This document shows, one piece after another, positions 9,504 to 37,672 of a DNA stretch of 64,000 bases. The translations under genes were made by a program, and so were the position numbers. Source of the DNA: Escherichia coli (GTDB taxonomy: Bacteria; Pseudomonadota; Gammaproteobacteria; Enterobacterales; Enterobacteriaceae); the NCBI GenBank assembly GCA_023061495.1, contig GCA_023061495.1_3643.1; one strand, given 5' to 3'. Below the pieces are notes generated by a model that worked only from the letters and a program-made list of their open reading frames with translations, did no database searches and had not been told where the DNA came from. Each line of letters starts with the position of its first letter. The first letter of the stretch is position 1.

Positions 9504-9533
9504 ATTATAACCAACTTAACAAGACTTTGTCAA
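9504..9533 (-). promoter_or_regulatory. sigma70-like promoter (TTGACA-N18-TATAAT)
   Basis: minus-strand -35 at 9533..9528, -10 TATAAT at 9509..9504. Confidence 0.55.
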
Positions 9534-9536
9534 CAA

Positions 9537-10028
9537 TTAGTCAACCTGAACCCAACCTCCTGCTACCTTTTTAAACATTCTTTGGTTATCGCTGCCTCGG
9601 AATGGTTTCTTGGTTGGTAAATCTTTTACATACTTTCCATCAATGACGATATCAGCCAGTTTAAGAACATCACTAGAGATATGCTCAAATGTGAACCCAG
9701 TATACACAAGAATAGTTTTCTTGTCACCAAACTTTTCCTTAATTCTCCTCATAAGGTCAATAATACCTGGCTCATTATAAGTAGCCAAAGGCTCTCCACC
9801 TAGTAAAGAAATACCGCATACAGAGTCATTGTCTAAATCCGACAAAATTTTCTGCAAATCTTCTTCGGTGAACTCTCTTCCTTTATCTTTTGACCAAAAT
9901 GCTTGATTAAAGCAACCAGGACAAGCATGTGGGCACCCAGATACCCACAAAGCTATCCTAATACCTGGTCCCTCGGTGTAAGATATCTCTGTATACCCGG
10001 CAATATTCATACATACTCCGCGTCGCAT
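9537..10028 (-). CDS. nrdG: anaerobic ribonucleotide reductase activating protein (radical SAM)
   Basis: CxxxCxxC cluster CPHACPGC near N-terminus; small size; adjacent to nrdD. Confidence 0.8.
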   Translation of the reverse strand: MRRGVCMNIAGYTEISYTEGPGIRIALWVSGCPHACPGCFNQAFWSKDKGREFTEEDLQKILSDLDNDSVCGISLLGGEPLATYNEPGIIDLMRRIKEKFGDKKTILVYTGFTFEHISSDVLKLADIVIDGKYVKDLPTKKPFRGSDNQRMFKKVAGGWVQVD

Positions 10029-10186
10029 TTAGGACAATGCCAAATAAAATCGTCCAGTGCCTTACACCAACGAAGATTGCAATGACAACCACACTTGCAA
10101 ATTTTATAAATACCTGATGACATACTGCACCTCCTAGCTCACTGTGTGTCAATAATATGCCACATCCTTGTGGCTTTTGTCAAGAA

Positions 10187-11446
10187 TCAGCAACCACAAC
10201 TTCCGTAGTGCTTAACTCGCTCGATAACTTCCGCTTGCTTACCTTTATTGTAAGGACGGGAGTTAGGGCTGGAAAGGTATCCAGACACACGTCGAATTAC
10301 ACTGATCGTTCCCTCTTCATGGTTTCCACACCCTGGGCATACAAAGCCTTTAGCTGTTGCACTGAACTCACCAGAGAAACCGCACTTGAGACATTTATCT
10401 ACAGGTTGGTTAATACCAAAATACATAATGTGTTTATATCCGAAATCAACAAGAGCTTCCAAAGCATCTAAGTTGTTTTTCAGATTTGGTGTCTCTATGT
10501 ACCCAATGTTGCCACCAGAGGAGATCATAGCAAAACCTTCCTCATACTTCCACTTATCAAAAGGCGAGCTATTGATCCATACTGGCTGATGGAAACTGTT
10601 GGTGAGGTATTCATGCTCGTGCTTCAACACTTCTGGGTATTCACGATCCAGACAGGTTGCAGCTTTATAGCATAAACTCTCAGAAGGTGTGCCGTACAAG
10701 CTAAATGCTAGTCCACTTTCCTTCTTGTATCGCTCACAAGCATCTTTCATGTGCTGAAGGATTCCAAGAGCTAAAGCCTTGTCACCCTCTCTGCCCAAAA
10801 TCTGACAGGTTTCATACACACCAATATACCCAATACTGATGGAAGCGTACCCGTCATAGAAGAGTTTATCGATACTCTCTTCAGGATCCAGGCGAGCAAG
10901 AGCTCCTTCACACCACATGATAGGGTTCTGCCCTGCCTTTGTTCCTTTTAGACGGTTAACCCTTACAAGGTGAGCCTCGTATGCAAGATCCAAGTATTCG
11001 TCAAGAACTGCAAAGAAATCAATACCTTCCGTCTTAGCTTTTGCCGCAATCATTGGTAGGTTAAGGCTAACAACACCCAAGTTGAATCTGCCAAGGTATT
11101 TTTCATCACCCTCCGGTGTAACATATTTGCCAAGGAACGACCTACATCCCATGCTTGTTACTTTGCCGTCTGTTGAACCTGTCACTTTACGATTTAGCGG
11201 AACAGAAACAAAGTCAGGATAAATCCGCTCTGCAGAGCATTCTAGGGCTAATCGTTTCAAATCGTAGTTAGGATCCCCAGGGTTCATGTTGACACCCTCC
11301 TCTAAGAAGAACAGCACTTTAGGGAACACAGGTGTGATCCGTTCTTCACCAAGACCCATTTTGTGAACTTTCAAGTAGTTTTTGGTAATCATTCTACCAA
11401 AGACCGAAGTATCCAGCCCTAAACTTAATGTGATGAATGGAGTCTG
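10187..11446 (-). CDS. nrdD: anaerobic ribonucleoside-triphosphate reductase, exon 2
   Basis: glycyl-radical motif RRVSGYL near C-terminus and Zn ribbon CLKCGF...CPGCG; 5' boundary inferred from intron splice logic (ORF track extends to a GTG at 11470). Confidence 0.75.
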   Translation of the reverse strand, partial: QTPFITLSLGLDTSVFGRMITKNYLKVHKMGLGEERITPVFPKVLFFLEEGVNMNPGDPNYDLKRLALECSAERIYPDFVSVPLNRKVTGSTDGKVTSMGCRSFLGKYVTPEGDEKYLGRFNLGVVSLNLPMIAAKAKTEGIDFFAVLDEYLDLAYEAHLVRVNRLKGTKAGQNPIMWCEGALARLDPEESIDKLFYDGYASISIGYIGVYETCQILGREGDKALALGILQHMKDACERYKKESGLAFSLYGTPSESLCYKAATCLDREYPEVLKHEHEYLTNSFHQPVWINSSPFDKWKYEEGFAMISSGGNIGYIETPNLKNNLDALEALVDFGYKHIMYFGINQPVDKCLKCGFSGEFSATAKGFVCPGCGNHEEGTISVIRRVSGYLSSPNSRPYNKGKQAEVIERVKHYGSCGC

Positions 11447-28167: not shown

Positions 28168-29451
28168 TTATTCCAGCACCTCCCAAGTGTCTGGGTTAAC
28201 ATTTCGGACGCAGATACCGACAGGGAATTGGTAGTTGTTGTCTTCTGTCCTTGCTTGATATTTGAAGGTGACAAACTTGCCGATCATTTCCTGCATCCTG
28301 TCATAGCTACGCTCCTCGTGCGTACCTTTCATCTTCATTTTAACAACAATACCTTCCTTGTCAACACAGATAAGAACACCTTCATCATTCTTATCTTTCT
28401 CAACGTCAATAACTTTCACCTCAGCATCGTTGAACTTTTTCCATTTCAATGCTTCAGATGTTCGCTGACCGTATTCGTATTTACCACAGAAGTTACGCAT
28501 GATAGTACCTTCATACCCTTCGGACATGAATACACCGACAGATTCTTCGCAATGATCAACTGTGTACGCAAGCTCTGCGTCAACAACCTTGATATGGTCA
28601 AGCATCAGAGTGGTAATGGTATCTTCTACATCCATAAGATCCTTGCAGCGTCCAGATTCTGTTTCTGGATCCCACCACACCTTGTCACTAGGAATATCAA
28701 AAATGTGATACTCTAGATCGTAGCTACAGTACCCACCGTAACGCAAATCATCACGAACAGGCTCAACATCAACAGGAATATCTACCTTGTTGAAGTTTTT
28801 GTATGTTGATAAGCCTGCCTTAATTGCGGCATGACGTCGTTTTTTATCTGCCTCGTAGTCTTTATCGATCTCGGCCTGAATCTCTTCCTGTGTGCGCCAC
28901 CGTTTAGCAAGAGACACTATTTTCTGCAGAGGCAGACCATGAATATAGATCTCTCCGTCGAGCTGTTTAATCCCGGTGGTGAAGTGGAAAGAACGAAGTT
29001 GCTCCAGAAGCTTTCCTTGAATAGGGTAGGACTTATTACCACGGGAAATAAATTTAGGCTCACCATTTTGGAAAACAACAAGTAGACGAAGGCCATCTAA
29101 CTTACGCAAGATCCAGCAAGGTAATTTAAGTGCCTTTCCACGCTTCAGGTAGTCATGCACCAGCATGGGTAAAAGGTCAACACCCTGCTCGCAATCTTCC
29201 ATATTTTCAACATACCCCAGACGGACTTGTTTTTCCCACTTACTGATCGCTTCCAGCTCAGCCTGTTGCTCAGCTGTAGTTTCATTGGCACGACCCACAT
29301 TCTTAGGTGTGCAGATCGTCTCTTTGTATTGCAGTTTACCATCAAGCTTGCCAAACTCTACGATAACCTTATCACCATCCGTGAATACTTTCCACTGTTG
29401 GTAGCTGCCATCTTTGTTCAGTGCGTACAGTGTTGTTTTGATCTGATGCAT
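28168..29451 (-). CDS. ATP-dependent DNA ligase
   Basis: adenylation motif I KLDG (WILRKLDGLRLLVVF), ligase-like size. Confidence 0.8.
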   Translation of the reverse strand: MHQIKTTLYALNKDGSYQQWKVFTDGDKVIVEFGKLDGKLQYKETICTPKNVGRANETTAEQQAELEAISKWEKQVRLGYVENMEDCEQGVDLLPMLVHDYLKRGKALKLPCWILRKLDGLRLLVVFQNGEPKFISRGNKSYPIQGKLLEQLRSFHFTTGIKQLDGEIYIHGLPLQKIVSLAKRWRTQEEIQAEIDKDYEADKKRRHAAIKAGLSTYKNFNKVDIPVDVEPVRDDLRYGGYCSYDLEYHIFDIPSDKVWWDPETESGRCKDLMDVEDTITTLMLDHIKVVDAELAYTVDHCEESVGVFMSEGYEGTIMRNFCGKYEYGQRTSEALKWKKFNDAEVKVIDVEKDKNDEGVLICVDKEGIVVKMKMKGTHEERSYDRMQEMIGKFVTFKYQARTEDNNYQFPVGICVRNVNPDTWEVLE

Positions 29452-30079: not shown

Positions 30080-30793
30080 TTAAATATATTCTGTTACATC
30101 CTTGAAGCTTGAAGGCTTCATAATCTTACCTTTACTGTCGAGGAATATGATAACTTTATTTCCGTTGTAGAATTCTTCTTTAGCAACAAAACCTTCATAG
30201 CGACCATCAAAGCGTCGCTCAAGATCTTTAATCTCCAACTCGATGAGTTGTTCAGCAGGCATATCTGCACTGGCACCGTGTGAATACCGCAGATGGTTGA
30301 CGCGTGCAAACTTGCTGTCATTAGATTTTAGAACTTTCCGCATCATCCCGCACACATCACCGCGAAGCTGGAACAGCAAAGCTGTTGACAACTCTGCTAA
30401 GCGGTAAGCAGACGCTCTTTGCTTAGAGGTATTTTTAGCAGCGATCAGTGTATCATAAAATTCACCGATCTTAAACTTAAGACCTCGCGGATTATCAAAC
30501 AGGTTTGACCACTTTTCATGGTTATCGTTAACAAGATAGGCGGCATAACTTGTGACAACGTGAAGATCGCAGGCCTCTTTTAGGAGATGATCCCCACCAT
30601 CACCTTTCTCCAACTCTTCCAAAACTTCATTGAACTCTTCCTCAATGAAACTAAGTTGGAGTTCGAATGGTGTGTATGATTTTTTCACTTTAGCTGCTAC
30701 ACGGTTCCAATTTTCCACCCAGTTGGCAGACCAAAGGTAGTTTTCAGGTTGAGACAGTTTTTCCAGGTTGTCGATCAGTTTAGTATTCAGCAT
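30080..30793 (-). CDS. hypothetical protein (possible MazG-like all-alpha NTP pyrophosphohydrolase domain)
   Basis: acidic helix cluster IEEEFNEVLEELEKGDGGDHLLKEACDL reminiscent of MazG E-x2-E/D metal-binding helices; weak. Confidence 0.35.
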   Translation of the reverse strand: MLNTKLIDNLEKLSQPENYLWSANWVENWNRVAAKVKKSYTPFELQLSFIEEEFNEVLEELEKGDGGDHLLKEACDLHVVTSYAAYLVNDNHEKWSNLFDNPRGLKFKIGEFYDTLIAAKNTSKQRASAYRLAELSTALLFQLRGDVCGMMRKVLKSNDSKFARVNHLRYSHGASADMPAEQLIELEIKDLERRFDGRYEGFVAKEEFYNGNKVIIFLDSKGKIMKPSSFKDVTEYI

Positions 30794-30807
30794 TAGAAGG
30801 CCTCCGC

Positions 30808-31569
30808 TTACAGTTCCATAAAGTTTTCTACGATGTCAATAAATGTTTTATCAGAGAAAGCATCAACCGCCCCGTTAAACCAAACTGGGATGCCGCGATC
30901 CTCGTACTGGTAAATGTCACTACGTGAAATGCCATTCTCCCATAAATGCTGTGAGTCGTATTTGTTAACGATCAGTAGTTTAGTCCCATTATTACAGGCA
31001 GGGAATAGCTCCCAGTTAAAATTGATAACTGTGTTGGAACACCCTACAAGGATAACCATATCATTGCTCGTCAGAGAAGTCAACAGGTCATACATGTCTG
31101 TATATTTTGGAGCTACTTCTCCGAAGAACACTACATTAGGCTTGACCCAAGTATACTCGCTTGCATCTACCTCAGAGTATCCAATGTCTTTAATGACGTC
31201 ACTCCCTTCATCATCCTCATAGACTATTTCTGGCAAATATCCGTGGACATGTAAAATATCTTCATGTTTTACACCAGCACGCTCCAGCAAATCATCTACA
31301 TTGGTGGTCAGGTTGATCACACGACCAGACCAGCGGGAATACCACTCAGCGATCCGGAGATGTGCAAGGTTAGGCTCAACACTCCCCAAAGCTACACGAC
31401 GTGCATTGTAAAAGTCATGCACCTTATAGTAGTTCTTGGTAAAGGTGTGGATGTTACACACCTCATCGATGCTGAAATTCTCCCACATTGCAGTGCCACC
31501 AGATCGGAAAGTGGGGATACCAGATTCAGCGCTCAAACCAGCACCGGAGATAATGATCAGTCGTCGCAT
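30808..31569 (-). CDS. Sir2-family (sirtuin-like) NAD-binding protein, no obvious Zn ribbon
   Basis: Sir2 signature ISGAGLSAESGIPTFRSGG, later TTNVD and HVHG; no CxxC pairs where sirtuin Zn ribbon normally sits. Confidence 0.7.
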   Translation of the reverse strand: MRRLIIISGAGLSAESGIPTFRSGGTAMWENFSIDEVCNIHTFTKNYYKVHDFYNARRVALGSVEPNLAHLRIAEWYSRWSGRVINLTTNVDDLLERAGVKHEDILHVHGYLPEIVYEDDEGSDVIKDIGYSEVDASEYTWVKPNVVFFGEVAPKYTDMYDLLTSLTSNDMVILVGCSNTVINFNWELFPACNNGTKLLIVNKYDSQHLWENGISRSDIYQYEDRGIPVWFNGAVDAFSDKTFIDIVENFMEL

Positions 31570-31577
31570 AAGTGTCC

Positions 31578-31928
31578 TCAGTAGATGTTTTGTTTAATCT
31601 CTATTCCAAACTTTTTAAACGAGTCAGCAGCAAGCATGAATTTACGAGCCGCTGATGGGTTAGAAGTATGCACGAAAATCTTCACGTTGTCAACTACAGG
31701 AGGCTTACCAAATACAAATTTTTCCTCCAGCATGGATAGGCAATCGTACCCTTCAAATACCTCTCCGAGATCGTTGTCCATGTGCCACTCAGAAACGCGC
31801 CTGTAGAGCTTTCCCTTATCGTTAATAAAATCCATAAACTCGGAGGAATTCTTTAGCCAAAGAGCATCTGGGAGCCCATAATTTGACGGATCTCTCAAGT
31901 CATCCAGCCACACAATCAACTTCTTCAT
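31578..31928 (-). CDS. hypothetical protein
   Basis: 116-aa ORF between RNA ligase and Sir2 genes. Confidence 0.45.
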   Translation of the reverse strand: MKKLIVWLDDLRDPSNYGLPDALWLKNSSEFMDFINDKGKLYRRVSEWHMDNDLGEVFEGYDCLSMLEEKFVFGKPPVVDNVKIFVHTSNPSAARKFMLAADSFKKFGIEIKQNIY

Positions 31929-32860
31929 TGCATATAGTCCTCGTTGTAGAAATAGCAGTCAAGTATCTCACGGCGTTCCTGTTCCAGGAGGCAATTCCAC
32001 ACATCTTCTGTGTAGTTTCTACGAATGAAGTTTACCATGCCGTAAAACTCTTCGTCAACACGCTTAAAGATATCATCATCCCAAATCTTCCAAGCTCTCC
32101 CTCTCATCACGGCCTTCCGTGCCAGATAGTATGGAGACTTGATCTTCAGTTGCAGGTCATAAGGGTAGTAAGGTTTACGGATCATATACCCTTCGCCCCT
32201 TGTTTCTGCAGCCAACTCTTTTGCATGGCTGAACGGAATTTCACGCACAGTGTGAGGACGTTTTGCACCAAGGTATTTGGCAATCCAGTCTAAAGCTGCT
32301 TCTGGCAGCATTATTCCAGAATCATTGTATCGGCAACCGATCAAATAGGCACCATGATCTTCCTGAACAATATGCGGATCTGAAGGATGGCAAATTTCAA
32401 ACATAAATGTCATATTTTCATTTCCCATAACCTTCTTGATAAGATCTAAATTACCACATTGATCCTGGATGGTTTCCTTTGCGAGATTACAATATGGGGA
32501 ATCAAGAGATCCGGTTGTTGAGAATAATAGTTCACCTTTATGAGAGGATACCACGCCAAGGAATCCGTTCTTTTTCTCTACCGCCGTCACAAGCTTATTG
32601 TCAGGCAGGTTGGTGGAGTTTTCTCCCAAGTTAAACACTTTTGTGAAGGGCCATGCCACAACATTTCCTTCATTACCGACAACAATGCCACGGCACTCCA
32701 GTAGACGCGGAGACAAATGCCATAGATTGTTGTAGAATACTTTTCTGGCATATTTGTAGATCTTTAATCCAAGATCTGGATAATACCGACTGGTTACAAG
32801 ACCTTTATCCACTAAATCATCTGCATTAAAATACTTCATCATACATTCCTCGTTTGTCAT
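31925..32860 (-). CDS. RNA ligase-like nucleotidyltransferase
   Basis: covalent nucleotidyltransferase motifs: I KxNG (VEKKNGFLGV), IV EGYMI, V LQLKIK; distinct from the DNA ligase at 28168..29451. Confidence 0.6.
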   Translation of the reverse strand: MTNEECMMKYFNADDLVDKGLVTSRYYPDLGLKIYKYARKVFYNNLWHLSPRLLECRGIVVGNEGNVVAWPFTKVFNLGENSTNLPDNKLVTAVEKKNGFLGVVSSHKGELLFSTTGSLDSPYCNLAKETIQDQCGNLDLIKKVMGNENMTFMFEICHPSDPHIVQEDHGAYLIGCRYNDSGIMLPEAALDWIAKYLGAKRPHTVREIPFSHAKELAAETRGEGYMIRKPYYPYDLQLKIKSPYYLARKAVMRGRAWKIWDDDIFKRVDEEFYGMVNFIRRNYTEDVWNCLLEQERREILDCYFYNEDYMQ

Positions 32861-32903
32861 TTTGTCACTCTATCTTGCCACACAAATAAACCCGTGTCAA
32901 CAC

Positions 32904-32932
32904 TTGAAATGAACAAAATAGTTATGTATAGT
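32904..32932 (+). promoter_or_regulatory. sigma70-like promoter (TTGAAA-N17-TATAGT)
   Basis: -35 at 32904..32909, -10 at 32927..32932, followed by GGAGG RBS and ATG at 32966. Confidence 0.5.
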
Positions 32933-32965
32933 ATACTATCATTAAAATTAAAACGGAGGATTGCT

Positions 32966-33376
32966 ATGTCTAAAATGCTATATATCGTGCGTGGTCTACC
33001 AGGTTCTGGCAAATCAACACTGGCAAATGCACTATCTTTAGAAGGGCTGTATCCACATTTTGAGAACGACATGTTCTGGTACGACGACGATGGAAATTAC
33101 AACTGGGATGCAAGTAAAGTAACACTTGCAGCAAAATGGTGCAAAGATAACGTAGAAGATATGATGCATATGGGATACGACCGTATCGTGGTAAGCAACA
33201 CATTCACAAAAGAAAAACATGTGCAAGAGTATGTTGACATGGCTATCCGTCATGGGTATAGTTACACCGTAATCGTGGTTGAAAACAGGCACGGTAACAA
33301 AAGCATCCATAATGTTCCTGATAAGGTTGTGGATCGTATGGAGCGCGAGCTTAAAAACTGCATTAAACTTAAGTGA
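32966..33376 (+). CDS. polynucleotide 5'-kinase (P-loop, Pnk-like)
   Basis: N-terminal P-loop RGLPGSGKSTLA as in T4 Pnk kinase domain; start moved from ORF-track 32894 to RBS-supported ATG at 32966. Confidence 0.65.
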   Translation: MSKMLYIVRGLPGSGKSTLANALSLEGLYPHFENDMFWYDDDGNYNWDASKVTLAAKWCKDNVEDMMHMGYDRIVVSNTFTKEKHVQEYVDMAIRHGYSYTVIVVENRHGNKSIHNVPDKVVDRMERELKNCIKLK

Positions 33377-33383
33377 GGAATGC

Positions 33384-33938
33384 ATGAAATATTTTGTAAC
33401 AAGCGACACACACTTTCTCCACCAGCGGGTTATGGAGTTTGATTCATGTCAAAAGCACCGATCTCAGTATAATAGCAATCTTGACAGTATGAACGAAGGA
33501 ATCATCGCAGAGTGGAACTCTGTTGTATCACCGGAAGACACTGTGTTTCACTTGGGTGATATTGCATGCACTAAGGATAAGAATATCAACAACTTACTTC
33601 CAGATATTCTAAATATGTTGAACGGACATATTATTCTTGTTAGAGGAAACCATGACACAAGGACTACTGTAAGAATTATGAAAGAGTTCGGTCATGATGT
33701 TGTAGATTATTACGAGCTTAGACACAACAAAAATTTGATCTGCATGAGTCATTACCAATTCGCAACATGGAACCGCAAGCCCCACGGATCAGTTCAACTA
33801 TTCGGTCATGCTCACGGAACCACACAACAGTTGTTTGGCAGGCAGTTTGATGTAGGTTGGGATGTGTGGGGGAGACTGTTACCATTAGAAGAGGCATATA
33901 GCATTGCAATGTGTTTTGATATTGACAGCAGGGAGTAA
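33384..33938 (+). CDS. calcineurin-like metallophosphoesterase
   Basis: motifs SDTHF (D-x-H), HLGDIA (GD), RGNHD (GNHD/E); start at RBS-supported ATG 33384. Confidence 0.7.
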   Translation: MKYFVTSDTHFLHQRVMEFDSCQKHRSQYNSNLDSMNEGIIAEWNSVVSPEDTVFHLGDIACTKDKNINNLLPDILNMLNGHIILVRGNHDTRTTVRIMKEFGHDVVDYYELRHNKNLICMSHYQFATWNRKPHGSVQLFGHAHGTTQQLFGRQFDVGWDVWGRLLPLEEAYSIAMCFDIDSRE

Positions 33939-33985
33939 TCCCTGCTATTTTAAAGAAAATTGCCACACAAGGAGAATGAGGAGAT

Positions 33986-34336
33986 ATGAAAGAGGAGGAT
34001 AAGCTGCCATACCTTAAAGTCCCATTTGGAATACTGTCTATGTCAAAAGTTTTGAATGATACAACTGGAGAGGTTGTTGTTCTTGACTTGTATGACAAGA
34101 TCGTATACTGCTACCTGTACAACTGGTATAAGCTTGGAGGAAATTCACGCTTCACACCCAGCACAAGGAAAATTGCAGCAGATATTGGGATAAAGAAAAC
34201 AAAAGCAGCATCGTGCGTTAAAACTTTAGAATGTGCAGGTGTGGTTGAAACATCCACACAAGGGAGAGGTAAAAGATGCACATTTTCCAAAGTTTTGCCG
34301 CCAGAAGAAGTTATTCGAATGGCAACAACTGGTTAG
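33986..34336 (+). CDS. putative HTH DNA-binding protein
   Basis: helix-turn-helix-like segment TRKIAADIGIKKTKAASCVKTLE; directly upstream of palindrome cluster. Confidence 0.45.
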   Translation: MKEEDKLPYLKVPFGILSMSKVLNDTTGEVVVLDLYDKIVYCYLYNWYKLGGNSRFTPSTRKIAADIGIKKTKAASCVKTLECAGVVETSTQGRGKRCTFSKVLPPEEVIRMATTG

Positions 34337-34422
34337 ACCAGTAAAAACTTAAATATCTGTACTATAAAGGTTCGTATGTTTTATGTTCACTTTAGAGCTG
34401 AGATTATTAACTGCCCGTGAGA

Positions 34423-36858: not shown

Positions 36859-36933
36859 GCCCTGTTAGCTTAGTGGATAAAGCAGCGGCCTTCTAAGCCG
36901 TTGACACTGGTTCGAGTCCAGTACGGGGTGCCA
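36859..36933 (+). tRNA. tRNA-Arg (anticodon TCT)
   Basis: hand-folded cloverleaf: acceptor GCCCTGT/ACGGGGT, anticodon loop CTTCTAA, T-arm ACTGG-TTCGAGT-CCAGT, encoded CCA. Confidence 0.75.
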
Positions 36934-36937
36934 AATT

Positions 36938-37024
36938 GGGGAGTTATCCCGTAGAGGTAGCGGTGTAGACTGTAAATCTATTGTCATTGCGACTCGGGTG
37001 GTTCGACTCCACCACTCCCCACCA
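36938..37024 (+). tRNA. tRNA-Tyr (anticodon GTA), long variable arm
   Basis: acceptor GGGGAGT/ACTCCCC perfect, anticodon loop CTGTAAA, long variable arm, T-loop TTCGACT, encoded CCA. Confidence 0.75.
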
Positions 37025-37138
37025 AATTTATAGTTTTAAATGCATAAATCATACAGATAATGGCATTTATATTTATCGTCGTTTATACTAGTCACTAACT
37101 GCTCGAAAATCAGTGTCATTATCAGTGTTGTTTATAAA

Positions 37139-37229
37139 TGAGGGTAGGGAGCAATGGTGCTCAAGCGGTCTTGAAAACCGTCCCGTTGAGGATGACTCGA
37201 TGATGGTTCGATTCCATTACCCTCAGCCA
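37139..37229 (+). tRNA. tRNA-Ser (anticodon TGA), long variable arm
   Basis: acceptor TGAGGGT/ACCCTCA perfect, anticodon loop CTTGAAA, about 20-nt variable arm, T-arm GATGG-TTCGATT-CCATT, encoded CCA. Confidence 0.7.
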
Positions 37230-37327
37230 TATTGTTGACCTTGTAATTAAGCGAAAGCCGGAAGCAGAACCGGATTATCAAATGTTACAGTCGTCATCGC
37301 CGACTAGCAACATGGTCAACATGCTGA

Positions 37328-37424
37328 GCTGGGTAAGCCCTTTGGCAAGGGCGAGGATTTTTAATCCTGAAAATAGACGAGGTAGTCGTTGAATACATAG
37401 GTGGTTCGATTCCATCACCTAGCA
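37328..37424 (+). tRNA. atypical tRNA-like gene; anticodon loop reads UUUUUAA (UUU, Lys-like) but about 30 nt lie between anticodon arm and T-arm
   Basis: acceptor GCTGGGT/ACCTAGC (one G-U), D-arm GCCC/GGGC, canonical T-arm GGTGG-TTCGATT-CCATC; fold not fully resolved by hand; no encoded CCA. Confidence 0.4.
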
Positions 37425-37432
37425 CCTTTTTT

Positions 37433-37508
37433 GCTGATGTAGCACAATTGGTAGTGCAATTGATTTGTAATCAATAGGTTGCAGGTTCAAGTCCTGCCAT
37501 CAGCACCA
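37433..37508 (+). tRNA. tRNA-Thr (anticodon TGT)
   Basis: acceptor GCTGATG/CATCAGC perfect, anticodon stem ATTGA/TCAAT with loop TTTGTAA, T-loop TTCAAGT, encoded CCA. Confidence 0.75.
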
Positions 37509-37509
37509 T

Positions 37510-37584
37510 GGCCCTGTAGCTGGAAGGTTCAAGCAAGCGACTCATAATCGCCAGATGGTGGTTCAATTCCACCCAGGGCCACCA
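37510..37584 (+). tRNA. tRNA-Met (anticodon CAT; could be initiator, elongator or Ile2-type)
   Basis: acceptor GGCCCTG/CAGGGCC perfect, anticodon loop CTCATAA, T-loop TTCAATT, encoded CCA. Confidence 0.7.
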
Positions 37585-37595
37585 AATAATAAATA

Positions 37596-37672
37596 CTCCG
37601 CGTAGCTCAGCTTGGTAGAGCGCCTGATTTGGGATCAGGAGGTCGAGTGTTCGAATCACTCCGTGGAGACCA
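37596..37672 (+). tRNA. tRNA-Pro (anticodon TGG)
   Basis: acceptor CTCCGCG/CGTGGAG, D-arm AGCTCAGCTTGGTAGAGC, anticodon stem CCTGA/TCAGG with loop TTTGGGA, T-loop TTCGAAT, encoded CCA. Confidence 0.8.

Follow-up and report, generated by a model that had tools for sequence, protein, structure and literature searches.

Immune effectors that cut tRNA or other RNAs, among them PrrC, RloC, PARIS, Retron-Eco7, Cas13 and HEPN toxins, are common anti-phage weapons. To our knowledge, the only phage repair counter-measure to have been studied experimentally is that of T4, in which the RNA ligase Rnl1 and the kinase-phosphatase Pnkp counter PrrC. Bacterial Pnkp is known to heal ends by means of a metallophosphoesterase (PMC2190708, PMC3675462), and stand-alone RNA kinases and ligases are found in the Mucorales, with healing and sealing performed by separate polypeptides (PMC11571804, PMC10946426). 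The closest described system is a computational prediction published in 2022 by Iyer, Burroughs, Anantharaman and Aravind (Viruses 2022; PMC9503650, section 3.7.3, Fig. 5f), who defined a sirtuin-centred RNA-repair neighbourhood, with Escherichia phage V5 and Proteus phage Mydo as prototypes, containing a T4-like tRNA ligase and a cyclic-phosphate-processing receiver-like protein (cREC), together with a nucleotide kinase, a sirtuin, a member of the MazG superfamily and a phosphoesterase of the calcineurin-like type; the sirtuin was proposed to act on 2'-phosphates in the manner of KptA. A kinase and ligase have likewise been read as tRNA repair in a Pakpunavirus paper (PMC12846349). Here, we examined this locus in a stretch of 64,000 nucleotides (the window) from Escherichia coli assembly GCA_023061495.1, contig GCA_023061495.1_3643.1. 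All six genes of the neighbourhood are present within 30080..33938, the MazG assignment being based on a partial phrog_671 match only. The locus is the one described there, with nothing structural to distinguish it, and the six-gene cassette is, as a prediction, already known. Our analysis centres on three of its genes, encoding a predicted RNA ligase, polynucleotide kinase and metallophosphoesterase, which form a genuine and widely conserved phage module that may heal and seal broken RNA.

The window derives from an rV5-like coliphage (Vequintavirus). Positions 31500-34400 are 93-95% identical, over their full length, to ~118 GenBank phage records, and the ligase protein is 96% identical to that of rV5 itself. 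These rV5-group records already carry gene labels, namely, 'RNA ligase 1 and tail attachment protein', '3'-phosphatase, 5'-polynucleotide kinase' or 'ATPase', 'phosphoesterase', 'cyclic-phosphate processing receiver domain-containing protein' and 'Sir2'. The ligase gene (31925..32860, minus strand) is transcribed head to head with the kinase (32966..33376, plus strand) and phosphoesterase (33384..33938, plus strand) genes across a spacer of 105 bp (32861..32965), at which the GC skew flips sign. An earlier note on this DNA had placed a split repair cassette at a divergent switch point; the list of open reading frames (ORFs) and their translations agree with its three ORFs, their positions and every motif that it quoted, and the spacer and skew bear out the switch point. 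A sigma-70-like promoter sequence (TTGAAA-17-TATAGT, plus strand, 32904-32932), also predicted at this place in phage Gotham, lies within the spacer and, together with a GGAGG Shine-Dalgarno sequence (32955-32959), backs the kinase ATG at 32966. No convincing minus-strand sigma-70 promoter for the ligase operon was found in the 105-bp spacer.

The ligase ORF of 311 residues contains nucleotidyltransferase motifs I (EKKNG; K96-x-N98-G99), III (FE155), IV (EGYMI; 223-227) and V (LQLKIK; 236-241, with K239/K241), and K96 is the predicted nucleophile of an Rnl1-type lysine-adenylyltransferase. The protein matched Pfam RNA_lig_T4_1 (PF09511; 4.6e-15, 56.5 bits versus a cut-off of 28.3) and phrog_562 (4e-66). 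Searches of the PDB with the single sequence of the ligase or the kinase alone gave nothing meaningful, and profiles of homologues were used instead. With a profile from 51 ligase homologues, T4 Rnl1 (2C5U, 5e-13) was the sole significant match, and hhalign of the ligase family against T4 Rnl1 gave a probability of 97.7% (E value of 1.6e-12). A Foldseek search with an AlphaFold2 (AF2) model of the ligase (pLDDT, the predicted local distance difference test score, of 91) retrieved T4 Rnl1, archaeal Rnl3 and fungal Trl1-LIG at ~1e-11 and Rnl5 and Rnl2 at ~1e-5, while DNA ligases were detected at 1e-5 or weaker, mostly near 1e-2. Because RNA ligases far outrank DNA ligases by fold, sequence and model together point to a T4 Rnl1-type RNA ligase that is neither a DNA ligase nor a capping enzyme. 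The family match, the profile, the family alignment and the fold ranking are, therefore, in agreement with the RNA ligase-like nucleotidyltransferase of the earlier note; among Rnl1, Rnl2 and Trl1, with which it had suggested comparison, Rnl1 was the best match by sequence.

All 87 ligase homologues (87/87) conserve K96, E155, E223/G224, K239/K241, R57, K74 and F76 (as Phe or Tyr). Three of these, R57, K74 and F76, align with Arg54, Lys75 and Phe77 in the N-terminal sub-domain of T4 Rnl1, where Arg54 and Lys75 are essential; T4 Phe77 corresponds to Phe76 in the numbering of PMC6379707. Identity to T4 Rnl1 is ~25%, and the score against the NCBIfam RnlA equivalog TIGR02308 was far below the cut-off (37.7 bits versus 242). 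Relative to T4 Rnl1, the window ligase has Asn98 in place of Asp101 (KxNG rather than KxDG), Thr116 in place of Lys119 and His163 in place of Ile168. The C-termini also differ: alignments to T4 end at motif V, and the helical module that follows (residues 243-305) comprises ~60 residues in the AF2 model, whereas the all-helical C-domain of T4 Rnl1, associated with tRNA specificity, has ~120. The true start of the ligase is probably Met7 (ATG at 32842), as suggested by a GAGGA Shine-Dalgarno sequence (32851-32847), homologues that start with MKF or MKY, a pLDDT below 50 for residues 1-7 and the annotation of 305 residues in Gotham. The start is probably mis-set in most GenBank records, with the shorter form present only in some, e.g., those of Gotham and Bas54.

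The kinase, of 136 residues, has a P-loop (GLPGSGKST, 10-18) and an invariant Asp35 that aligns with the catalytic Asp35 of T4 in an hhalign comparison with the verified T4 Pnk sequence; the equivalent residue of the Mucorales kinase MciKIN, Asp36, is essential (PMC11571804). Matches were obtained to Pfam AAA_33 (4e-10) and phrog_2071 (2e-57). In the PDB, the kinase profile matched best the stand-alone Mucorales tRNA-splicing kinase RazKIN (3e-6), followed by Pnkp1, PSTK, T4 Pnk and the Clostridium thermocellum enzyme CthPnk, and by fold the protein is nearer to the polynucleotide 5'-kinases of T4, Clostridium and fungi than to nucleoside or deoxynucleoside monophosphate kinases. The lid residue Arg108 aligns with T4 Arg122, and the position of the T4 lid residue Arg126, a donor contact, is occupied by a non-conserved lysine, Lys112. 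Profile, fold and Asp35 agree with the P-loop polynucleotide kinase of the earlier note and indicate a stand-alone, minimal polynucleotide 5'-OH kinase, as judged from sequence and model.

The third protein, of 184 residues, carries the motifs SDTHF (7-11), GD (58-59) and GNHD (88-91), and its candidate metal and phosphate ligands are D8, H10, D59, N89, H90, H123, H142 and H144. In 52 homologues, D8/H10, G58/D59, G88/N89/H90, H123 and G141/H142/H144 are invariant, and the protein is thus predicted to be a catalytically complete binuclear metallophosphoesterase. Family matches were to Pfam Metallophos (2e-6) and phrog_547 (2e-52); at such scores, none of the three family assignments can be put down to chance. 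The best PDB match of the profile was Aquifex aeolicus aq_1665 (1XM7, 7e-31), with the phosphodiesterases GpdQ, MJ0936, YfcE and Rv0805 and the Pseudomonas putida MPE nuclease, an ssDNA endonuclease, coming next. The protein belongs to the family of aq_1665 (cd07390 MPP_AQ1575; phrog_547), and its orthologue in phage PAK_P4 is labelled cd07390. A role in healing 3' ends is suggested by phage gene context rather than by homology.

Gene context was examined in 80 viral contigs encoding ligase relatives, together with annotated phage loci; neighbours were scored by profiles, and the ligases were grouped into 50 lineages at 80% identity. Distances were taken between stop-to-stop ORFs, some of the upstream ones being truncated to 0; hence, only counts within 2 kb were used. 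Kinase counts were made with an uncontaminated profile, an iterated kinase hidden Markov model having been dropped after contamination by kinase-ligase fusions caused it to match every ligase. A kinase was present within 2 kb of the ligase in 38 of the 50 lineages, including two in which it is fused to the ligase N-terminus. The phosphoesterase was found within this distance in 42 lineages; of its 43 hits, a single one was farther away. Within the sample, only rV5-type phages encode the kinase and phosphoesterase on the strand opposite to the ligase. The kinase-ligase fusions of these two lineages were seen at 11 loci as single ORFs of 426-433 residues, for example, 9530..10822 at L042 and 9527..10822 at L057. 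A kinase-Metallophos-ligase fusion of 738 residues, with all domains confirmed, is encoded by Fusobacterium phage Fnu1, and Staphylococcus phage PT94 has an apparently similar fusion of ~750 residues, in which the identity of the central domain is presumed. The trio is also retained in the more distant Acinetobacter phage Liucustia. The proximity of the kinase and phosphoesterase to the ligase in so many lineages, together with the fusions, indicates that the trio is a genuine, widely conserved module. While the phosphoesterase is termed 'occasional' in PMC9503650, it was the most constant partner in our ligase-centred sample, and it was the sirtuin and cREC that were lineage restricted. In the kinase-ligase fusions, the domain order (kinase N-terminal, ligase C-terminal) is unlike that of Trl1 (LIG-KIN-CPD), and no aq_1665-type phosphoesterase is present within 10 kb of those loci.

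The earlier note had treated the cassette as a set of three genes. The trio stood up as a module, but three further genes in the ligase operon had been overlooked. These are arranged leftward, on the minus strand, in the tight order ligase, cREC (31578..31928, 116 residues), sirtuin (30808..31569, 253 residues) and MazG-like gene (30080..30793, 237 residues); the cREC start overlaps the ligase stop by 4 nucleotides, the sirtuin gene lies 8 nucleotides downstream of cREC and the MazG-like gene 14 nucleotides downstream of the sirtuin gene. The cREC protein matched PF20274 (4.5e-14; 53.3 bits versus a cut-off of 27) and phrog_1479 (9e-35). Its acidic residues D9, D10, D51 and D53 are shared by the homologues displayed in the alignment, where V86, H87, S89, N90, P91, A93 and K96 are invariant; this domain was defined in PMC7824862, and its role has been predicted there and in PMC9503650. 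The sirtuin (Pfam SIR2, PF02146, 7e-27, 94.9 bits; phrog_2162, 3e-109) keeps the GAGxS (G9-A-G-x-S, NAD-binding, conserved in the full-length sequences), TTNVDD and HG motifs, with the catalytic residues N90, D92 and H109 invariant in the alignment of homologues. Direct reading of the sequence between HG (109-110) and KPNVVFFGE found no Zn-ribbon cysteines, and scores were below the cut-off for all NCBIfam deacylase models. The third protein is weakly assigned as MazG-like and related to nucleotide pyrophosphohydrolases: it had no Pfam match and only a partial match to phrog_671 (5e-22), and a MazG-superfamily protein is a named component of the neighbourhood in PMC9503650. Among the ligase lineages, cREC was present in 6/50 and the sirtuin in 7/50, and the three accessory genes were confined to Vequintavirinae-like phages (6-9/50 clusters). 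Neither a 2H cyclic phosphodiesterase domain nor a Hen1 methyltransferase was found in the locus. An ATP-dependent DNA ligase of 427 residues (28168..29451, minus strand) is encoded in the same leftward block, 2.5 kb downstream of the RNA ligase.

Other lineages have other neighbours. Genes for NadV were associated with the ligase in 25/50 lineages, for ribose-phosphate pyrophosphokinase in 21, for HD proteins in 10, for Macro domains in 9 and for NadM-Nudix in 6; no NAD-salvage, Macro or HD genes were found in this window. In phages PAK_P4, Brizo and KpS8, the trio is adjoined by NadV, ribose-phosphate pyrophosphokinase, sometimes NadM-Nudix, and a Macro domain, which in PAK_P4 is labelled Poa1p-like. 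These NAD+ salvage and Macro genes may be tied to NAD-dependent RNA repair or may just share an anti-defence island with the trio.

Comparison with the known systems shows a mixture of features. With T4, the locus shares homologous ligase motifs and N-terminal residues, the kinase fold with Asp35 and the presence of tRNA genes in the phage; in contrast to T4 Pnkp, the kinase carries no fused phosphatase, the candidate phosphatase is a metallophosphoesterase rather than a HAD (DxDxT) enzyme and the kinase lacks Arg38. With the bacterial Pnkp systems (Pnkp-Hen1 of Clostridium thermocellum and Pnkp1-Rnl-Hen1 of Capnocytophaga), it shares the predicted combination of P-loop 5'-kinase, binuclear metallophosphoesterase and adenylyltransferase ligase; the CthPnk and Pnkp1 structures are among the matches of the kinase, and the Fnu1 fusion, and probably that of PT94, has the Pnkp order of kinase, phosphoesterase and ligase. 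However, the window has three proteins encoded on two strands, no Hen1, a phosphoesterase of the aq_1665 family and a ligase that is Rnl1-like rather than Rnl4. Likenesses to Trl1 and the Mucorales enzymes are the KxNG form of motif I, a histidine 8-9 residues past the motif III glutamate, RazKIN as the best kinase match and, for the Mucorales, the use of separate polypeptides. Unlike Trl1 (Rnl6), the window ligase stands alone rather than being fused to KIN and 2H-CPD domains, its C-domain is not alignable and the similarity is weak.

The likeness to Trl1 is of interest with regard to the chemistry of the 3' end. Four residues of Trl1-LIG, namely, Asn150 of motif I together with His227, Arg334 and Arg337, bind a sulfate that has been read as the 2'-phosphate of the substrate; these residues are described as unique to Trl1, and metal-bound waters are further contacts of Asn150 (PMC6379707). 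An hhalign comparison of rV5-type ligases with Trl1-LIG, using sequences taken from PDB output, gave a weak alignment (81%, E value of 1.2e-5) in which Asn98 falls on Asn150 and His163 on His227. Both residues are invariant in the 87 ligases of the rV5-type family (87/87), and K249 and R253, which follow motif V, are also invariant; the alignment ends before the C-domain arginines R334/R337 of Trl1. Sampled ligases with a metallophosphoesterase partner, separate or fused (rV5 type, Liucustia, Fnu1 and PT94), had KxNG as motif I and D-[P/K]-H after motif III, whereas those partnered with a kinase-HAD Pnkp (T4-like teqdroes, Streptomyces phage Genie2 and Pseudoalteromonas phage XG4) had KxDG and N-R-I; for PT94, the metallophosphoesterase partner was assumed from its kinase-ligase fusion and an adjacent phosphatase gene. 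This split, Asn/His with metallophosphoesterases and Asp/Ile with HAD-Pnkp, is a new detail of the present analysis, although it may just mark two clades that have been co-inherited with their partners.

These observations are consistent with a conserved phage module for RNA end healing and sealing in which the 3' end would be completely dephosphorylated, as in T4 and bacterial Pnkp, a reading that we hold with middling confidence. Breaks would be made by RNA-cutting nucleases such as anticodon nucleases, toxin RNases or HEPN/Cas13-type effectors. The kinase would phosphorylate the 5'-OH end; the metallophosphoesterase would open the cyclic phosphate and then, as in bacterial Pnkp, remove the phosphate to leave a 2'-OH/3'-OH end; and the ligase, adenylylated on Lys96, would seal the break. 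The kinase-phosphoesterase pair would be expressed from its own sigma-70-like promoter, divergently from the ligase operon, and the rV5-like cREC, zinc-less sirtuin and MazG-like proteins may be lineage-specific accessories for cyclic or 2'-phosphate ends or for NAD-derived by-products. On E. coli K-12, the rV5 relative Bas54 tolerated transposons in its genes for the sirtuin, cREC, ligase, kinase and phosphoesterase (mean counts of 88-406); as these five cassette genes can be disrupted, their dispensability fits a conditional, counter-defence role. A '~2 kb insertion-free intergenic region' of Bas54 was considered for the ligase-kinase spacer, but it is located at another strand-switch point, between bas54_0134 and bas54_0135.

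Several observations weigh against this proposal. The kinase has Trp38 where T4 has Arg38, which contacts the acceptor. The C-terminal module of the ligase in the AF2 model has about half as many residues as the T4 tRNA-specificity domain; hence, the substrate may not be tRNA. The earlier note had taken the phosphatase to be of the metallophosphoesterase rather than the HAD type. The complete binuclear motifs uphold this, but no kinship to the characterized RNA-repair branch could be detected: lambda phosphatase, the CthPnkp phosphatase and Pnkp1 were absent from the 28 PDB chains matched at an E value of ≤1, the aq_1665/AQ1575 family is without a characterized member (1XM7 is a structural-genomics protein) and the best NCBIfam model was a weak match to PdeM, a DNA-damage endonuclease (19.8 bits versus a cut-off of 150). 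Depletion of the Bas54 cassette genes was not significant among hosts in any of the comparisons examined, and no experimental test of the cassette proteins was found in the literature, where they are known from prediction only. Finally, Asn98 and His163 resemble part of the Trl1 2'-phosphate pocket; if they were alike in function, full removal of the 3'-phosphate would be the wrong chemistry. The earlier note had set the cassette beside tRNA repair in T4. An RNA-repair core is retained from that reading, but T4-like chemistry is not established, and a yeast-like 2'-phosphate route is possible because Asn and His occupy the positions that hold the 2'-phosphate mimic in Trl1.

In such a route, which was already proposed by Iyer et al. 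(PMC9503650) and which we consider possible though unlikely, the phosphoesterase and/or cREC would only open the cyclic phosphate to give a 3'-OH,2'-PO4 end and the kinase would generate the 5'-PO4. The ligase, with a pocket including Asn98 and His163, would require the 2'-phosphate, which would be left at the junction and then stripped with NAD+ by the sirtuin, like Tpt1/KptA, or by host KptA for phages without a sirtuin, while cREC and the MazG-like protein would process the ADP-ribose cyclic-phosphate by-product. This would account for two of the four sulfate-holding residues of Trl1 being matched by residues invariant in all rV5-type ligases, for the Asp and Ile found at these positions in HAD-Pnkp-partnered T4-type ligases, for the invariance of K249 and R253 after motif V, as of R334 and R337 in Trl1, for the location of the sirtuin and cREC genes in the ligase operon and for the NadV, ribose-phosphate pyrophosphokinase, Macro and NadM-Nudix genes adjoining the ligase in many lineages. 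However, Asn and His are universal, whereas the sirtuin and cREC are each confined to a few lineages (7/50 and 6/50), and the motif I Asn is not diagnostic, as that of Trl1 contacts metal-bound waters too. The Trl1 alignment is weak and stops short of the C-domain arginines, the residue split could reflect clade markers inherited with the partners and the NAD-salvage genes may have an unrelated anti-defence function. No KptA-like ORF was found with an E. coli KptA sequence as the query, a weak negative on account of that query. More doubtful is the extended proposition that metallophosphoesterase-partnered phage ligases are 2'-phosphate-dependent, Trl1-like enzymes and that the zinc-less sirtuin of rV5-like phages is a non-homologous, NAD+-using replacement for Tpt1/KptA. 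If true, bacterial viruses would possess a complete 'eukaryote-style' tRNA-splicing-type repair pathway, and the sirtuin-less phages would provide the long-unexplained bacterial KptA with a natural substrate.

Other explanations detach the healing enzymes from RNA repair. The phosphoesterase, cREC and MazG-like proteins could destroy nucleotide second messengers, cyclic or linear, used by host defence systems and be linked to the ligase only through a shared early 'anti-defence island'. The closest characterized relatives of the phosphoesterase are indeed small-molecule phosphodiesterases (GpdQ, MJ0936, YfcE and Rv0805), NAD and nucleotide metabolism genes abound in the neighbourhood of other phages and such roles have been weighed for cREC and Nudix domains (PMC9503650), but this would not account for the fold of a polynucleotide kinase, the fusions (kinase-ligase and kinase-phosphoesterase-ligase) or the tight, ligase-centred spacing, and we regard this possibility as improbable. 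About as improbable is that the kinase and phosphoesterase clean 5'-OH/3'-phosphate nicks in DNA for the DNA ligase at 28168..29451, with the RNA ligase having an unrelated role. In 25/50 lineages, a DNA ligase lies no more than 5 kb from the RNA ligase, and in 14/50 no more than 2 kb; in the window, the distance is 2.5 kb. DNA is likewise a substrate for T4-type and Mucorales kinases (PMC11571804), and the phosphoesterase is weakly similar to PdeM and the P. putida MPE nuclease. However, the PdeM match is far below the cut-off, the kinase is fused to RNA ligases while no fusion to a DNA ligase was seen in the sampled loci, and the kinase and phosphoesterase are nearer to the RNA ligase than to the DNA ligase, and more consistently so. 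Tail-fibre attachment as the main role of the ligase, comparable to the second activity of T4 gp63, is scarcely credible. Only the T4-inherited label 'RNA ligase 1 and tail attachment protein' favours it; the ligase gene is in an early, RNA-repair-type operon and not among the tail genes, the protein has ~25% identity to T4 Rnl1 with a differing C-terminal module, and insertions are tolerated in the Bas54 ligase gene (mean of ~190-260 reads/site) but not in the part of T4 rnlA that encodes the catalytic N-terminal domain.

A phage tRNA cluster (36859..37672, plus strand), identified by ARAGORN, Rfam and the annotation of the rV5 record, contains seven tRNA or tRNA-like genes: Arg-UCU, Tyr-GUA, Ser-UGA, Thr-UGU, Met-CAU, Pro-UGG and a tRNA-like element of 99 nucleotides. 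A gap of 2.9 kb separates the phosphoesterase gene from the tRNA genes, close to the ~3 kb given in the earlier note. These tRNAs are possible substrates of repair or could constitute a parallel counter-measure. The tRNA-like element (37328..37426, plus strand, between tRNA-Ser and tRNA-Thr) was reported by ARAGORN as 'tRNA-??? (atcc)' and scored 33.7 bits with the Rfam tRNA model. Its minimum free energy fold (z = -3.1) is a cloverleaf with an extra arm, and there is no normal anticodon loop because the 'anticodon' hairpin, with a 6-bp stem, closes in a 3-nucleotide UUU loop. The element is 95-99% identical in ~112 of 123 matching rV5-like records, being unannotated in rV5 and termed 'tRNA-OTHER' in others, and might serve as a decoy or be a tRNA-like RNA that does not decode. 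Rfam detected only tRNAs across 28-40 kb; a sub-threshold 'Plastid-ycf2 5'UTR' match (37510..37582, minus strand; 40.6 versus 65.7 bits) opposite tRNA-Met almost certainly reflects a chance resemblance to the complementary strand of the tRNA.

Immediately after the phosphoesterase gene, a small helix-turn-helix (HTH)/DUF6945 protein is encoded (33986..34336, plus strand), which matches phrog_12838 ('replication initiation protein') and is elsewhere labelled a transcriptional regulator. Its Bas54 orthologue, bas54_0212, had transposon-insertion counts of ~13 compared to 88-406 in the neighbouring genes; because of this very low count, the protein is probably important for growth. The coliphage region is also 93-98% identical to 18 unannotated 'Campylobacter phage' records of 58-143 kb (MG065644, MG065652-54, MG065690 and others), which suggests that these records are mislabelled or contaminated and do not reflect a genuine Campylobacter host.

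The trio of ligase, kinase and phosphoesterase is spread across the Vequintavirinae, Stephanstirmvirinae, Pakpunavirus, Vibrio Demerecviridae and Saclayvirus and occurs in fused form in phages of Gram-positive bacteria and Fusobacterium. The Asn/His signature makes the choice between pathways testable through the need of the ligase for a 2'-OH or a 2'-PO4 end, and transposon libraries exist for the close relative Bas54. Knowing the chemistry of this cassette would reveal the extent of RNA repair among phages and the end chemistry that they use.

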